A stretch of 64,000 nt of DNA from a bacterium (GTDB taxonomy: Bacteria; Krumholzibacteriota; Krumholzibacteriia; LZORAL124-64-63), in assembly GCA_031441465.1 (NCBI GenBank), contig JANOEP010000011.1, positions 35,890-99,889 of the forward strand, given 5' to 3'. This document shows positions 6,671 to 34,009 of this stretch, piece by piece; position 1 is the first letter of the stretch; every line of letters starts with the position of its first letter. The translations under genes were made by a program, and so were the position numbers. The notes under the pieces were generated by a model. That model worked only from the letters and a program-made list of their open reading frames with translations. It had not been told where the DNA came from and did not search any database.

Positions 6671-6747
6671 TGGTAGCGGCTCAGGGATTCGAACCCCGGA
6701 CACACGGATTATGATTCCGTTGCTCTAACCAACTGAGCTAAGCCGCC
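6671..6747 (-). tRNA. tRNA with anticodon CAU, 77 nt including encoded CCA. Elongator Met or tRNA-Ile2 (k2C34).
   Basis: Hand-folded cloverleaf. Acceptor GGCGGCU/AGCCGCU has one G-U pair. D-arm is GCUC-AGUUGGUUA-GAGC. Anticodon stem ACGGA/UCCGU with loop AUCAUAA. T-arm CGGGG-UUCGAAU-CCCUG. Lacks the initiator features (3 GC pairs in the anticodon stem, 1:72 mismatch). Confidence 0.8.
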
Positions 6748-10177: not shown

Positions 10178-11408
10178 CAGCGCCATGCACGCGCGCGAAG
10201 GGGTCCACCAGGCGCTCCTGACGATCCGGGGCCACCGGTTGCGCAGCGCCCTGTTGATCCTCGGCGTGGCCATCGGCGTGGCGACGCTGCTGGCGATCTA
10301 CACCATCGTCTCCGGCCTGAGCGGGCGCATCCGCAGCGACATCGTCTCCTCGGCCAAACCCTACCTCTACATCGCCCGGCACTCGGGCCTCGGCGGCGAG
10401 GACCCCGAGGAGGCCCTGCGCCGGCCACAGTTGATGCCGGAGCTGATCGCGCCCCTGGACGCGCTGCCCGGCGTGGACGGCGTGGACTACATGATCACCA
10501 GCGGGCGGGCGACGATCCTGACCTACGGCAAGGAGCGCACCAACCTGGTGCAGATCTTCGGCGCCTCGTCGAACTTCGCCTCGCTCTACTCGTTCACCCT
10601 GGCCGAGGGGCGCTACTTCACCTTCGACGAACAGGACTCCCGCACCCGCGTCTGCGTGCTCGGCAGCGGCCCGTCCGAGGCCCTGTTCCCCGGGATCGAC
10701 CCCGTCGGCAAGACCCTGCGCCTGTTCGGCACGGAGTACCGGGTCGTCGGCGCCATGGAGAGCCGCCGCCATATCTTCGGCGCGATGGGGGACAATTTCG
10801 TCGTGGTGCCGTGGACCTCCTACGAGAAGGACTTCTCGACCGGCGAGTACGACGACCGCACGCTGGCCGTCACGGTGGTCGACGGCTTCGAGACCGACGA
10901 CGTCGCCGCCGACGTCACCGGCGCCCTGCGCCGCGGGCGCGGCCTCAGGCCCGGCGAGAAGGACGACTTCGCGGTGGTCGCCTCGGAAACCTACGGCGAA
11001 CTCGTCGACAAGGTGACCCAGGGCGTCGCCCTGATGCTGGTGGTGCTGTCGAGCATCGGCCTGATGGTCGGCGGCATCGGCGTGATGAACATCATGCTGA
11101 TCTCGGTCACCGAGCGCACCCGGGAGATCGGCGTGCGCATGGCCATCGGCGCCCGTCGTCAGGACGTGCTGCGGCAGATCCTGGTCGAGGCCGCCACCCT
11201 GACCGCCATCGGCGGCGTCATCGGCGTCGTGCTGGGCTACCTCGCGGCCTGGGGCGGCACCAAGGTCCTGCGCTTCCCCTTCGCCCTGAGCCCCTGGATC
11301 GTGCTGATCGCGGTGCTGTTCTCCGCGGGGATCGGCATCGTCTTCGGGCTGTACCCCGCCAACCGCGCGGCGCGCATGGATCCCATCGAAGCCCTGCGCC
11401 ACGAGTAA
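10170..11408 (+). CDS. ABC transporter permease, second MacB-like FtsX-domain paralogue.
   Basis: Same architecture as the preceding gene, with the same MDPIEALRHE C-terminus. Overlaps the previous gene by 8 nt. No NBD gene in the window. Confidence 0.8.
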   Translation: MSSSAMHAREGVHQALLTIRGHRLRSALLILGVAIGVATLLAIYTIVSGLSGRIRSDIVSSAKPYLYIARHSGLGGEDPEEALRRPQLMPELIAPLDALPGVDGVDYMITSGRATILTYGKERTNLVQIFGASSNFASLYSFTLAEGRYFTFDEQDSRTRVCVLGSGPSEALFPGIDPVGKTLRLFGTEYRVVGAMESRRHIFGAMGDNFVVVPWTSYEKDFSTGEYDDRTLAVTVVDGFETDDVAADVTGALRRGRGLRPGEKDDFAVVASETYGELVDKVTQGVALMLVVLSSIGLMVGGIGVMNIMLISVTERTREIGVRMAIGARRQDVLRQILVEAATLTAIGGVIGVVLGYLAAWGGTKVLRFPFALSPWIVLIAVLFSAGIGIVFGLYPANRAARMDPIEALRHE

Positions 11409-11422
11409 CACACCCCGGTGAC

Positions 11423-11569
11423 GAACAGGACACACGGATCGTCCCGTCGCGGGGGGCGCTCGCCGGACACATCCTGTGTCCGGCTCGCTCGACTTGCGTC
11501 CCTCTGCGCCCTCCTGGCGCAGAGGGCCTCCAGACGCCCCCGCGACGGGACGATCCGTGTGTCCTGTTC
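11423..11569. repeat. Nested palindromic element: a ~35-bp outer inverted repeat enclosing two internal perfect hairpins.
   Basis: Arms GAACAGGACACACGGATCGTCCCGTCGCGGGGGGCG (11423-11458) and its reverse complement (11535-11569). Inner hairpins CCGGACACA-TCC-TGTGTCCGG (11463-11483) and CCCTCTGCGCC-CTCCT-GGCGCAGAGGG (11500-11526). Lies between convergent gene ends. Confidence 0.7.
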
Positions 11570-11705
11570 GTGGACCGGGGTGGATTGGGGGAGAGGTGGG
11601 GACGATGCGACCGGGCTCAGCGCACCAGGGACATCATGGTCGTCGCGACCGTGCCGGGCGAGGTAGGTGCCCGAGGGGTAGGTGCGGCAGCGCAACCGCC
11701 GCGGT

Positions 11706-12077
11706 TTATCGCCGCGCGAGGCAGGACGCGGCCAGCAACCCCCAGCCCGCCAGGAAGAACACCCCGCCGAAGGGCGTGACGATCCCCAGCTTGCGCAGGC
11801 CGGTGAGCGCGAGGGCGTAGAGGCTGCCCGAGAACAGCAGCGTGCCGGCGAGGAAGCACCAGCCGGCGGCGCGGGCGGGCGCCGGTGACGCCGCGCCGCC
11901 GCCGGCGGCCCAGGCGGCCGCGAGCAGGGCGAAGGCGTGGTACATCTGGTAGCGGGCGCCGGTCTCGAAGATCGTCAGCATCTCCGGCGTGAGCTTCGAC
12001 TTCAGGCCGTGGGCGGCGAACGCGCCCAGAGCGACGGCGACCAGGCCGGACACGGCGCCGGCGAACGCGAAGTTCAT
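11706..12077 (-). CDS. DUF423 (YgdD/TMEM256-like) small membrane protein.
   Basis: 123 aa with four TM helices and conserved HG...YH pattern. ATG overlaps the TGA of the upstream gene (ATGA). Confidence 0.65.
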   Translation of the reverse strand: MNFAFAGAVSGLVAVALGAFAAHGLKSKLTPEMLTIFETGARYQMYHAFALLAAAWAAGGGAASPAPARAAGWCFLAGTLLFSGSLYALALTGLRKLGIVTPFGGVFFLAGWGLLAASCLARR

Positions 12078-24968: not shown

Positions 24969-25042
24969 TGCCCGGTCGTTCAATGGTAGGACTGCTGACT
25001 CTGGCTCAGTATATGGGGGTTCGAATCCTCCCCGGGCAACCA
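24969..25042 (+). tRNA. tRNA-Gln (anticodon CUG), CCA encoded.
   Basis: Hand-folded. U1:A72, which is typical of bacterial tRNA-Gln. Acceptor UGCCCGG/CCGGGCA. Anticodon loop CUCUGGC. T-arm GGGGG-UUCGAAU-CCUCC. Confidence 0.8.
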
Positions 25043-25082
25043 TGGAATACGACGACGGCCCCAGGGCTGTCGGCAGGATCGT

Positions 25083-25158
25083 GCCCCCTTCGTCTAGTGG
25101 CCTAGGACGCCGCCCTCTCACGGCGGTAACACGGGTTCGAGTCCCGTAGGGGGTACCA
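25083..25158 (+). tRNA. tRNA-Glu (anticodon CUC), CCA encoded.
   Basis: Closely matches the E. coli tRNA-Glu backbone (GUCU-AGUGGCCUA-GGAC D-arm; CCGCC-CUCUCAC-GGCGG anticodon arm). G1:U72. Confidence 0.8.
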
Positions 25159-25939: not shown

Positions 25940-26881
25940 TTGCCGCCGGCGCGCGACACGCCCGACGGGGTCGGAGGCCGCGCTTCCGACCCCGTTGCGC
26001 GTCCGCGGCGGGCCCTGCTGATCTTCGTCGACGGCCTGGGCTGGGGCGGCGGCGATCCCGCCGTCGACCCCTGCCGCGGCTACGGCGGCACCCTCTTCGA
26101 CTTCGCCCACACCGACGCCGGATGCCGGCCAATCGACGCCTGTCTGGGCGTCGACGGCCTGCCCCAGAGCGCCACCGGCCAGACCACGCTGCTGTGCGGC
26201 GTCAACGCCCAGGCGGCCGTGGGCCGGCACGTGCCGGGCTTCCCCACGGCGCCGCTGCGCGACATCCTGCGCGAGAAGTCGATCTTCGTGCAGTTGCGTG
26301 ATTCCGGCCGCGACGGCAGCTTCTTGAATGCCTTCCGTCCGCTCTTCTTCCGCCTGCCGCGCGCGATGCAGGGAAGGCTCTCGGCCACGACGGTCGCCCA
26401 CCTCGCTGCGGACCGGCCCTTCTTCGGTCTGGATGACCTGCGCGCTGGCCGCGCCGTCTACCAGGAGTTCACCAACCGTGAACTGATCGGCAAGGGCTTC
26501 GACGTGCCGGAGTTCACGCCGGAGCAGGCCGGCCGCATCCTGGGCCGCGAAACGCTGCGGCGCGACTTCACCCTCTACGAGTACTTCCAGACCGACCGCG
26601 CCGGCCACGCCCGTGATCGCCCGCGCGCCCACGCCGTCCTGCAAGACCTGGAGACCTTCGTGCGCGCCGCCCTCTCCGAAATCACGGCGCAAGGCTCCAA
26701 CTCCCAAACCCTCGTCCTGCTCACCAGCGACCACGGCAACCTCGAAGACCTCTCCACCCGTTCCCACACCCGCAACCCGGTCCCCCTGCTCGCCTGGGGC
26801 CCCGGCGCCGCCGCCCTGCTCGCCCGCTGCACCCGCCTCGACGAAGTCACCCCCGCCCTGCTCTGCCTTCTGCTGAATTGA
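25940..26881 (+). CDS. Alkaline-phosphatase-like metalloenzyme (cofactor-independent phosphoglycerate mutase / phosphopentomutase-like core).
   Basis: LIFVDGLGWGG N-terminal metal motif and LLTSDHGN C-terminal motif. Confidence 0.6.
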   Translation: MPPARDTPDGVGGRASDPVARPRRALLIFVDGLGWGGGDPAVDPCRGYGGTLFDFAHTDAGCRPIDACLGVDGLPQSATGQTTLLCGVNAQAAVGRHVPGFPTAPLRDILREKSIFVQLRDSGRDGSFLNAFRPLFFRLPRAMQGRLSATTVAHLAADRPFFGLDDLRAGRAVYQEFTNRELIGKGFDVPEFTPEQAGRILGRETLRRDFTLYEYFQTDRAGHARDRPRAHAVLQDLETFVRAALSEITAQGSNSQTLVLLTSDHGNLEDLSTRSHTRNPVPLLAWGPGAAALLARCTRLDEVTPALLCLLLN

Positions 26882-26886
26882 GAGGG

Positions 26887-27038
26887 GTTTCTATCCCGAG
26901 GGACGCTCCCCTTGGTTCCCACCTCGGAGAGACATACAGAGGCCCCGCGCTGCGATTTCCTTCCAGGCATGAGCAGCGCGGGGCCTCTGTATGTCTCTCC
27001 GAGGTGCCGAACTAGGGGAGCCGTCCCTCGAGATAGAA
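26887..27038. repeat. Very large palindrome: a perfect 31-bp stem with a 21-nt loop and imperfect outer extensions. Sits between convergent genes and is a probable bidirectional terminator or structured element.
   Basis: CCTCGGAGAGACATACAGAGGCCCCGCGCTG (26921-26951) and its exact reverse complement (27001-27033... core 26973-27003). Outer partial matches run 26887-26911 and 27013-27038. Confidence 0.7.
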
Positions 27039-27905
27039 CACCTCGAAAACCTTTTCATGGAAGATGGGGCCATGCCCGAAGTACCCGTCCTCGCCGAACA
27101 GCTCCCCGTGGTCGGACATCACCATGAAGTAGGTGTTGCGCGGGCAACGCTGCATGAACTCGCCCACGACCCGGTCGAGGTGCTCCACGCAGACGACCTG
27201 CTTGTCGTAGAAGGCGCGGAACTGCGCCGGCGTGAAGAACTCGTCCTCTTTCTTGTCCTGCATGAATTCCGAGGGGTTCTTCAGGAAGTCGTCGAGGTGC
27301 TTGAAGACGCCGTGGACGCCGGAGATGTGCGGCAGGTCGCCGGGCTTCTCGCCGGGCAGCAGGTAGGGGTAGTGCGTCTCGCCGGTGTTGAGGAAGAAGA
27401 ACGAGGGCCGGTCGTCGCGGAACTGCAGCTGCTGGAAGATCAGGCTCAGGTCGTTGTGGCTGGGGGCCAGCTCGTACTTGTCGAAGTGCTGGCTCATGCT
27501 GGTCATCGGGTTGAGGACCGGCAGGCTGACCCAGCCCTCGTTCCAGTAGCCGGCCGCCTTCAGGAAGTGCGGCAGTGAGAGCTGGGGCACGAACTTCCCG
27601 AATTCCACGTCGGGCATGTTCAGTCGGTGGCTCCACAGGGCGAACTCCTCGCGGTAGACGTTGCTGGCGAAGACCCCCTTGGGGCTCAGGTGGGGCACCA
27701 TGCCCATCAGGAAGGTGTAGTGGCTGGGGCTGGTCCAGCTGGCGTAGCTGTAGCGCGGCTCGGCCGACGCGATGCGGTCGAGGTTGGGCGTGCGGGCCGC
27801 CTGGTAGGCGTCCCAGCGGCAGCTGTCGAAGACGATGAACACCAGGTTGTTGAGCTTGCCGCCGCCGGCGATGAGGCTCTTGACCCTGTCGATGAGGCCG
27901 GCCAT
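27012..27905 (-). CDS. AlkP-superfamily hydrolase (sulfatase/phosphodiesterase-like), cytoplasmic.
   Basis: NLVFIVFDSCRWD N-terminal metal motif and FMVMSDHGE. The F/Y/K-rich composition and lower local GC are atypical for this genome. Confidence 0.6.
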   Translation of the reverse strand: MAGLIDRVKSLIAGGGKLNNLVFIVFDSCRWDAYQAARTPNLDRIASAEPRYSYASWTSPSHYTFLMGMVPHLSPKGVFASNVYREEFALWSHRLNMPDVEFGKFVPQLSLPHFLKAAGYWNEGWVSLPVLNPMTSMSQHFDKYELAPSHNDLSLIFQQLQFRDDRPSFFFLNTGETHYPYLLPGEKPGDLPHISGVHGVFKHLDDFLKNPSEFMQDKKEDEFFTPAQFRAFYDKQVVCVEHLDRVVGEFMQRCPRNTYFMVMSDHGELFGEDGYFGHGPIFHEKVFEVFYLEGRLP

Positions 27906-28418: not shown

Positions 28419-28505
28419 AATGCCGACAGCTTGTTGAATGTTTACAAGCCATAATCAACAAACAGGTTAGCCTGGATAGCGGCACAATGTGTAGGCGTTG
28501 CTACG

Positions 28506-28547
28506 TTGCATGCAACGGTATTGATGCAACAATACCGTTGCGTGCAA
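28506..28547. promoter_or_regulatory. 42-bp palindromic operator-like site (TTGCATGCAACGGTATTG-ATGCAA-CAATACCGTTGCGTGCAA) upstream of the sigma-54 activator gene.
   Basis: Perfect 12-bp arms GCAACGGTATTG/CAATACCGTTGC around a 6-bp centre. Arms extend to 18 bp with one mismatch. TGCAAC is repeated three times. Confidence 0.5.
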
Positions 28548-28585
28548 CGCTGCTGGGGGGCATCTTGGAAGGCAGGGGAGGAACC

Positions 28586-32443: not shown

Positions 32444-32587
32444 CCTCCGCGTTGGGGCCCCGGCGGGGCCTCGGTTGAGTGATGTAGAAATGATATCATA
32501 AAGAGATCATACGCGCAAACCGATTCCATGTTGCACCATCAAACGCCGGCCAGGTCGCAACCCCCGCCCCGAGTCAGGTACCGGTGT

Positions 32588-32729
32588 CCCGGATCTGCAC
32601 ATCCTGCGGTATCGGGGGCGTCTGAAGGCCTCCGGCGCCAGGAGGGCGCCGGAGGCCGGAAGTCGAGCGGGCCGGGCACAGGATGTTCCCGGCCCGCGTC
32701 CCCCGCTACGGCAGGATGTGCAGATCTGG
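32588..32729. repeat. Second nested palindromic element: 19-bp outer inverted repeat (CCGGATCTGCACATCCTGC ... GCAGGATGTGCAGATCTGG) enclosing a perfect 13-bp-stem hairpin GGCCTCCGGCGCC-AGGA-GGCGCCGGAGGCC.
   Basis: Shares the ACATCCTG/CAGGATGT core with the element at 11423-11569. Lies between the pepT stop and the SPFH start. Confidence 0.65.
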
Positions 32730-32734
32730 AACTC

Positions 32735-34009
<1,275 letters not shown>

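Follow-up and report, generated by a model that had tools for sequence, protein, structure and literature searches.

A dispersed family of palindromic elements with a conserved asymmetric core and locus-specific arms in uncultured high-GC bacteria

Introduction

Several kinds of short palindromic repeat are found in bacterial genomes. Repetitive extragenic palindromic (REP) sequences, bacterial interspersed mosaic elements (BIMEs) and hairpin-forming REP doublets (REPINs) are GC-rich extragenic palindromes at gene ends or between convergent genes, often arranged as inverted pairs; they can fold alone or as one large hairpin, are syntenic, and may act as 3′ barriers on mRNA (PMC3733652). MITEs (miniature inverted-repeat transposable elements) such as Correia/NEMIS, ERIC/IRU and RUP are 100-250 bp long, intergenic and dispersed, form long hairpins, and alter the ends or the transcripts of neighbouring genes. 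All of these traits recur in the subject of this study, a palindromic element (element I, 11411-11582) in a 64,000-nt stretch of contig JANOEP010000011.1 (assembly GCA_031441465.1, Krumholzibacteriota), which as a whole is called the window below. A third body of work concerns template switching between inverted repeats, for which homogenisation of the arms, inversion of the spacer and expansion of the arms have been documented (PMC8604942; PMC8794818; PMC13100816).

Element I belongs to a family of palindromes of about 150 bp with a layout that is unusual for repeats of the REP, BIME or MITE kind, as a conserved asymmetric centre is framed by arms that differ from locus to locus. Such a layout suggests that the DNA structure maintains itself, and speaks less for a small RNA gene. 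We favour, with a probability of about 0.58, the reading that these are REP/BIME/MITE-like palindromic DNA repeats, the arms of which would be kept by template switching while the core is under sequence constraint.

The two elements of the window

An earlier reading of the DNA, made from the letters alone (the sequence-only reading), had described element I as a 147-bp element with a long outer inverted repeat around two perfect hairpins. The outer repeat was confirmed. It is perfect over 35 nt, the left arm (11421-11455, plus strand) being complementary at 35 of 35 positions to the right arm (11537-11571, plus strand), and 81 nt separate the two. The left arm is locus-specific, ends with GGGGG, and differs from its orthologues in L001 and L008 by compensatory changes (L-numbers denote sampled loci from related DNA that were compared with the window). 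The extent of the element had to be enlarged. An outermost extension of 9 nt on the left, CACCCCGGT (11411-11419, plus strand), is 100% complementary to ACCGGGGTG on the right (11574-11582, plus strand) and is paired in the minimum-free-energy fold, which lengthens the palindrome to about 172 nt.

Between the arms, all on the plus strand, lie a junction strand GCGCTC that leads from the outer arm to hairpin 1 (11456-11461), hairpin 1 itself (GCCGGACACA-TCC-TGTGTCCGGC, 11462-11484), a conserved linker TCGACTTGCGT (11489-11499), hairpin 2 (CCCTCTGCGCC-CTCCT-GGCGCAGAGGG, 11500-11526), and a second conserved linker CCTCCAGACG (11527-11536), for which the consensus line of the aligned copies gives the family motif CAGACR. 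Both hairpins are indeed perfect, and hairpin 2 has the 11-bp stem and 5-nt loop that had been read; the stem of hairpin 1, below its 3-nt loop TCC, comprises 10 bp and not 9. The junction strand is part of helix 2, in which 98% of the alignment cells are paired; in element I, GC at 11458-11459 pairs with GC at 11487-11488. C11490 and G11491 of the first linker pair with C11535 and G11536 of the second and so form the junction helix. As RNA, the plus strand of element I folds with -149.6 kcal/mol (z = -15.5; none of 200 shuffles was as good) and the minus strand with -150.0 kcal/mol, while -94.4 kcal/mol (z = -16.5) was obtained for single-stranded DNA.

The position between convergent genes also stands. 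A MacB/FtsX-type permease gene stops at 11408, the palindrome begins 3 nt later, and the convergent minus-strand gene on the right has its end at 11706, a position derived from homology to L018.

Element II (32586-32732) is a full homologue of element I on the opposite strand. Only a common motif within the core had been noticed before, but the entire core aligns in reverse orientation, well beyond the ACATCCTG motif. The core of element II (32614-32704, minus strand) scores 109.1 bits with our covariance model and contains, in plus-strand coordinates, hairpin 2 at 32627-32657, which carries compensatory changes, and hairpin 1 at 32667-32697 (both minus strand). The outer stem is unlike that of element I. 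Its 5′ arm (32700-32732, minus strand) starts 3 nt past the stop codon of the peptidase T gene (pepT, 32735-34009, minus strand), and the 3′ arm in the minus-strand reading (32586-32618) is 33 nt long and 88% complementary to its partner.

Copies and host range of the family

That element I might be unique in its genome had been named beforehand as the outcome that would speak against the proposal of a repeat. Related copies do exist: we found a total of 29 full copies at about 14 distinct loci. A loop-to-loop pattern retrieved 11 true copies from species-representative genomes, and four further matches (L004, L009, L011, L012) were rejected as chance matches inside coding DNA. A second pattern, in which hairpin 2 was left free, gave 10 further copies in metagenome contigs, all of them genuine. 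A covariance model built on 21 copies and run on the fetched loci, as well as on loci reached through neighbouring proteins, recovered additional, more diverged copies.

All copies sit in DNA of 69-72% GC. Where protein-cluster names exist, the element-bearing metagenome-assembled genomes (MAGs) form one close clade with more than 90% identical PepT and MacB proteins; the MAGs of this clade are labelled 'bacterium', Gemmatimonas sp. or Ca. Latescibacterota. It may be mentioned that taxonomic labels are inconsistent in the element-bearing clade (loci L001, L007, L010, L015; protein clusters P0121 / P0001) and that the same elements are present in loci of 71% GC that bear the label 'Fibrobacter sp. 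IMS_BF'. At least 9 copies are present in five sampled loci of MAG GCA_016719645.1; a copy number of tens to about 100 per genome is no more than extrapolated from the DNA that was sampled. In L014, L019, L002 and L032 the copies form inverted pairs.

Outside this clade the searches were negative. In relatives with a 72-76% identical MacB orthologue, the orthologous site is devoid of the element and of any hairpin, and no copy was found in 104 kb of their DNA. Two pattern scans of viral contigs gave no match and one chance match in coding DNA, respectively, and plasmids (PLSDB, searched by blastn) gave none. No Rfam family was found for the element at gathering or permissive thresholds, the best score being 13.9 bits against a threshold of 70, and at the gathering threshold only three tRNAs were reported across the window. 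For the PepT and Band-7 proteins encoded in the window, an exact look-up gave no identical sequence on record. The family is previously uncatalogued and is confined to a narrow lineage of uncultured bacteria of 70% GC.

A conserved core with a three-way-junction fold

Each copy consists of a conserved, asymmetric core of about 91 nt inside locus-specific arms of 26 to more than 90 nt. In the 5′ to 3′ direction, the first arm, which usually ends with GGGGG, is followed by an R-CGC strand, hairpin 1, the linker GCUYGACUU, hairpin 2, the motif CAGACR, and the second arm, which starts with CCCCC. The top of hairpin 1, CAC-A-UCC-U-GUG, is nearly invariant in the family, and the stem below it reaches up to 14 bp in other copies. 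In hairpin 2, the lower stem is variable and covarying and the top, GCGCC/GGCGC, is invariant; its loop CUCCU occurs in the variants AUCCU, AUCCG and AUCCA.

All helices covary across the relatives. Changes on both sides were seen for 30-31 of the 42-43 modelled pairs, and 95.8-96.5% of the cells are paired. None of 500 shuffles equalled this, and registers shifted by 1-3 columns had only about 43% of the cells paired. Double changes affect 7 of 10 pairs in helix 3 (hairpin 1) and 7 of 11 pairs in helix 5 (hairpin 2). The junction pair 53-102 joins the Y of GCUYG to the R of CAGACR. It is C-G in 23 copies and U-A in the other 6, so that no copy departs from pairing. Because the helices covary and the junction pair has no exception, the three-way-junction fold, consisting of hairpin 1, the linker, hairpin 2 and a 2-bp junction helix, is real in one single-stranded form or another.

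The unpaired loops and linkers are as well conserved as the stem columns, with a mean majority-base frequency of 0.87 for both. This would not be expected for a purely mutational palindrome, and we infer that a partner recognises the core. On the same grounds the element may be a protein-binding array, as the sequence-only reading had also considered. Core identity averages 92.5% within orthologous groups and 77.6% between groups, which is why most copies are taken to be old and syntenic. A few cross-locus pairs of cores reach 94.6% identity, above the identity to their own orthologues, which suggests occasional exchange between copies.

A DNA-like signature

In the three main helices there are 1050 Watson-Crick cells, 9 G-U, 14 A-C and 28 other mismatches. 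G-U is no more frequent than A-C, its equivalent on the other strand, and each is outnumbered by the transversion mismatches. The two strands fold equally well, and a strand bias is absent; the signature is DNA-like, not RNA-like.

The arms are perfect beside the core, their identity falls outward, and they reach 65-115 nt in several copies. Their evolution could be followed at locus II, where the window, L032 and L033 form a trio of orthologues. Third-codon positions of pepT are 85-90% identical in this trio and the cores 82-89%. The arms are only about 62-64% identical in the computed alignment, yet they are complementary within each copy. By eye, the arms are recognisably homologous and the adjoining unconstrained spacer can barely be aligned. 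The arms thus outpace the flanking genes and stay complementary all the same, and therefore copying between the arms is indicated; pairwise compensatory selection would be too slow. Arms from different loci resemble each other no more than shuffled sequences do (mean score 12.1 versus 11.5), with the exception of group A versus L022, and no 8-mer of the outer arms is common to four or more loci.

The exception deserves a description of its own. The copy in L022 (3565-3760) has a D-type core, but in its arms and the DNA next to them it is similar to locus A, i.e. element I (window 11405-11590), with a score of 28 where the 99th percentile of the shuffles is 18.8. L014a, the orthologue of this locus-D copy, has unrelated arms, and in L022 the copy is followed by a 2.2-kb open reading frame (ORF) without Pfam hits. 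This arrangement suggests an exchange or a rearrangement between copies.

One further event involves orientation. When L015 and L016 are compared with L020, the flanks match as reverse complements (86.5% over 1103 nt) but the element matches in the forward direction (92.5%), and therefore the core has flipped relative to its surroundings. Such a flip was seen once among about seven orthologous groups. Together with the inverted repeats that bound the element, it brings to mind a programmed invertible DNA switch (inverton), in which the arms would be recombination sites and flipping of the core would switch the content of the neighbouring transcript. We regard this as very improbable. The spacers of known invertons are far longer than the 81 nt found here. 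The arms differ at every locus, so that no single site-specific recombinase could recognise them, an invertase gene was found near none of the copies, and a single flip among the orthologous groups is little for a switch. Inversion of the spacer is, moreover, an expected by-product of template switching (PMC8604942).

Gene context, transcripts and candidate RNA functions

The genes next to the copies are mutually unrelated and include MacB, PepT, Band 7, FGE-sulfatase, xanthine-dehydrogenase type, methyltransferase, Fic, Exo_endo_phos and chromate transporter genes. A Pfam sweep over most of the window returned only housekeeping genes and no transposase, recombinase, reverse transcriptase or CsrA. 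Scans for sigma-70 promoters and terminators around elements I and II gave nothing relevant.

Both the strong covariation and this context have to be weighed for a strand-specific structured RNA, as the sequence-only reading had offered a structured small RNA. The element might be a small RNA of the 3′ untranslated region (UTR) with anti-Shine-Dalgarno-like loops (CCUCCU, AUCCU) or, when read from the opposite strand, a CsrA/RsmA decoy with the GGA hairpins ACAGGAUGU and CCAGGAGGG; in either form RNase III would process the RNA at the long outer stem. Loop conservation fits such a role, as UCC/GGA is found in nearly all copies, and ACAGGAUGU would match the CsrA consensus RUACARGGAUGU from systematic evolution of ligands by exponential enrichment (SELEX). 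Weak, non-significant minus-strand Rfam matches to RsmV (E ~5.5) point the same way. At five loci (A with element I, II, B, K and L020) the UCC-loop strand follows directly after a stop codon on the coding strand. In L021 (6262-6560) a copy is preceded by a near-consensus promoter-like site, TTGACA-N17-TAAATA, and followed by the Shine-Dalgarno sequence and the start of a Fic/DOC gene; the 5′ UTR of the Fic gene would thus include the copy, with the GGA-loop strand transcribed. In addition, RNA stems can be maintained by template switching (PMC8794818), so that this process is compatible with an RNA.

We nevertheless consider a structured RNA unlikely. G-U makes up less than 1% of the cells and is no commoner than A-C on either strand. 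Orientation to the flanking genes varies, the UCC-loop strand being on the opposite strand at loci C, J and L015/L016, and hence neither the GGA nor the UCC strand is fixed. The core is inverted between orthologous loci, so that the same outside promoter would read opposite strands. A conserved promoter and a U-tract were not found, loop 1 is UCG/CGA in L032a and L013b, and no Rfam family was reached at threshold. A csrA gene was not found by tblastn with the E. coli and B. subtilis CsrA proteins in the 438 kb sampled, a result that is uninformative. In short, the anti-Shine-Dalgarno and CsrA-decoy readings are attractive on loop sequence alone and are not borne out by the evidence from strand, orientation and pair types.

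A simpler proposal is that the copies are ordinary bidirectional factor-independent terminators, or stabilisers of mRNA 3′ ends, that resemble each other through common constraints in a high-GC genome. Elements I and II do lie directly past stop codons, element I even between convergent genes, and their hairpins are extremely stable on both strands; a long palindrome without the core (26884-27040, see below) also lies between convergent genes and is kept in relatives. Convergence, however, does not explain an asymmetric 91-nt core with linkers and a junction pair that are homologous across 14 loci. The terminator scan detected no terminator-like site in 11000-12000, and the arm of element I is followed by GGACCGGGG, without a U-tract. 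Copies are also found in a 5′ UTR and upstream of genes, and the element is missing at the same site in slightly more distant relatives. We thus judge this proposal to be quite improbable.

Marks on the genome and spread of the core

Several copies have left marks on the neighbouring genes. In L002a, L013b, L032a and L033, stop codons lie within the arms. The PepT proteins of the element-bearing clade have a four-residue C-terminal extension (A/T)PGK (window 32735-32750, minus strand), which is missing from more distant PepT homologues that end with ...WAEKES(A); in L032 and L033 the extra PepT codons and the stop codon are inside the arm of the element. That the arms are plain copies of the upstream gene end was considered and dropped, as the PepT tail is itself clade-specific and the direction of copying is ambiguous there.

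Other copies adjoin insertions or deletions. A second, inverted copy, L032b, lies between pepT and the Band-7 gene and is absent from the window and from L033. By our reading of the sequences, one side of its outermost arm matches the ancestral intergenic sequence and the other side is an inverted copy of it; L032b is the only case with a host-derived outer arm. L014b occupies the site of a 2.2-kb ORF in L022. Directly to the right of element I, the window is without about 2.1 kb that are found in five relatives (window 11583-11697 versus L018 3276-5436, and likewise versus L005, L024 and L008; about 1.1 kb in L001). The segment contains an ORF of 296 aa without Pfam hits and a chromate transporter gene, and the border of the indel adjoins the palindrome.

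The REP/MITE-like mobile repeat that had been suggested for element I is borne out insofar as a dispersed multi-copy family exists; conserved terminal repeats, a transposase and a target duplication were not found. It is in this light that we assess a non-autonomous transposon with the core as its only mobile unit, moved by an HUH/Y1 transposase similar to the REP-associated tyrosine transposases (RAYTs) or by another transposase, and either inserted into hairpin tips or with arms made upon insertion. Copies are dispersed in unrelated contexts, sites are polymorphic for presence and absence, and some cores at different loci are 94-95% identical and thus closer than their own orthologues. Copies occur in inverted pairs, like REP dimers, and GACG, the reverse complement of CGTC, at the core borders recalls the CGTC-tagged REPs. 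The latter are likewise without a dedicated transposase (PMC3733652). On the other side, a transposase was found in none of the sampled loci, a target duplication was not seen, a GTAG tag is absent, the outgroup sites have no pre-existing hairpin, and most copies are old and syntenic. The two hairpins of the core also differ from each other, in contrast to the left-end and right-end hairpins of IS200/IS605 elements. Taken together, we find such a transposon rather unlikely.

Two specific variants were rejected. Insertion of the core into a pre-existing terminator hairpin is unsupported at the locus concerned, where the orthologous outgroup sites are hairpin-free. The GACG at both borders is not a target duplication by our reading of the aligned copies, as the variable 5′ and 3′ border bases do not co-vary.

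A proposed mechanism

We return to the reading that we favour, palindromic DNA repeats with arms kept by template switching. The core would take up its fold while single-stranded at the replication fork, or would form a cruciform. Template switching of the polymerase between the arms would repeatedly homogenise them, extend them into the flanking DNA and occasionally invert the spacer. The core itself would be kept by sequence constraint, the likeliest reason being recognition by a structure- or sequence-specific protein, and occasional exchange between copies may also help to keep it. When transcribed, the hairpin (about -150 kcal/mol) would be a 3′ barrier or a terminator-like block on either strand, as a side effect and not as the selected function.

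Several observations weigh against this view. Neither in the window nor in the annotated loci was a transposase, a recombinase or a reverse transcriptase found. The borders of element I and the comparison of the filled and empty sites of L032b gave no sign of a target-site duplication; an inverted copy of flanking sequence was found instead. Conservation of the core in place (92.5%) and the conserved loops imply what may be a host-level or partner-dependent function, as conserved loops are not predicted for a purely selfish or mutational palindrome. Template switching can maintain genuine RNA hairpins (PMC8794818), so that Watson-Crick-only pairing does not strictly exclude an RNA role, and the UCC-loop strand right after stop codons at five loci could reflect some selection at the RNA level.

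A more far-reaching reading is that the core is the recognition structure of a new DNA-level recombination or mobility module, a three-way-junction seed that is bound or cut by a dedicated structure-specific protein. We deem this unlikely. If it were true, the seed would nucleate palindromes that extend and correct themselves and would flip like a parvoviral terminal repeat, and the module would intrude into the ends of genes and delimit gene-sized insertions and deletions, rather than being a passive repeat.

If the favoured reading holds, the family would be a natural example of long palindromes that are kept perfect by a structured DNA centre even as they drift in sequence, far faster than the adjacent genes. 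The covariation would then originate from a mutational process and not from selection on RNA, which calls for caution when structured RNAs are called by covariation alone. The palindromes rewrite gene termini, as in the PepT tail, and sit at indel borders, which bears on genome plasticity in a poorly known and uncultured host lineage that is common in communities of wastewater. A partner, to which the conserved unpaired loops point, could be sought experimentally.

Other features of the window

A third long palindrome (26884-27040) lacks the family core. Its arms of about 72 nt, of which the inner 27 are perfect, enclose a 19-nt centre, GATTTCCTTCCAGGCATGA. It is located between convergent Metalloenzyme-type and Sulfatase-type genes and folds as single-stranded DNA with -79.9 kcal/mol (z = -17.6). 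At the same site in L032-L034 it is 84-93% conserved, and its sequence is thus much more stable than the arms of element II. A hairpin with 21-bp arms (25958-26002) lies just inside the start of the Metalloenzyme-type ORF, directly after a peroxiredoxin gene, and a palindrome of 23+23 nt without spacer (28504-28549; CGTTGCATGCAACGGTATTGATG / CAACAATACCGTTGCGTGCAACG, 91% complementary) lies between thioredoxin and sigma-54 activator genes.

Upstream of the Band-7/SPFH gene there is an AT-rich stretch GTTTGCGCGTATGATCTCTTTATGATATCATT (32466-32520, minus strand) with TTGCGC-N17-TATCAT and a palindrome TGATATCA. The promoter scan did not list it. It is probably the promoter and operator of the Band-7/SPFH gene, because it is conserved in L032 and L033 and the surrounding spacer is not. 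The three tRNA genes are at 24969-25155 and 6674-6747; the plus strand carries two, which are neighbours, and the minus strand the third.

Comparison with described systems

When compared with REP sequences, the family has interspersed extragenic copies, often in inverted pairs, as is typical for this group. REP units are 20-40 nt long, carry a GTAG or CGTC tag, and form the conserved stem with their own sequence; here, in contrast, a 91-nt three-way junction is conserved and the long stem is locus-specific. The hairpins are 23-31 nt long, but they always occur as a set of two that are unlike. A GTAG tag is absent. Of the 29 copies, 23 have GACG at the core's 3′ border, the other 6 having CAGACA, and GACG is also present at the 5′ border (GGGGGACGC) in roughly 60% of the copies. 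A RAYT gene (Y1/HUH transposase) was found neither in the window nor in the annotated loci. The element thus corresponds to the REP definition in part only. Closer in shape are the REP dimers within longer palindromes (Anabaena GTAG-15, Halothiobacillus CGTC-1; Di Nocera et al. 2013, PMC3733652), where small hairpins are central as well, but those enclosing palindromes have one consensus per genome, whereas the present arms are locus-specific, fast-evolving and reach into host sequence.

MITEs have conserved terminal inverted repeats and target-site duplications. The family falls outside this definition because its terminal repeats are not conserved, being in fact the least conserved part, and because no target duplication was found. 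An IS3-type HTH_Tnp_1 gene in L027 belongs to a genome without the element, and there is no transposase near any copy.

Regulatory RNAs of the CsrB/RsmY/RsmZ type are not matched either: most copies have two GGA loops on one strand, and a promoter or terminator was not found, the strand is variable, and a G-U signal is absent. The GC-rich hairpin without a U-tract does not constitute an intrinsic terminator. As for invertons, both orientations do occur between related genomes, with arms that are locus-specific and no invertase nearby. Integron attC sites are arrayed beside an integrase and are imperfect palindromes (R''-L''/L'-R') in which some bases are extrahelical, while the copies of the window form no array, being 21 kb apart on opposite strands, and no integrase was found; the stems are perfect and have no conserved bulges.

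In overall shape the element recalls the inverted terminal repeat of parvoviruses (adeno-associated virus, AAV), which has about 145 nt with a long stem around two small hairpins, a T- or Y-shaped junction, and flip and flop forms of the inner part. The likeness is one of shape only, without sequence similarity. The AAV repeat is terminal in a linear single-stranded DNA virus and is made by hairpin transfer, whereas the element studied here lies within a bacterial chromosome and did not turn up in the scans of viral contigs.

In its behaviour the element is similar to the inverted repeats that are subject to template switching (PMC8604942, PMC8794818, PMC13100816), as homogenisation, multi-base compensatory changes, expansion and inversion are all seen here as well. 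The cases described in these sources mostly have arms of less than 20 bp, spacers of a few nt and no conserved centre, whereas in the present family the arms enclose a conserved, structured spacer of 81-91 nt.

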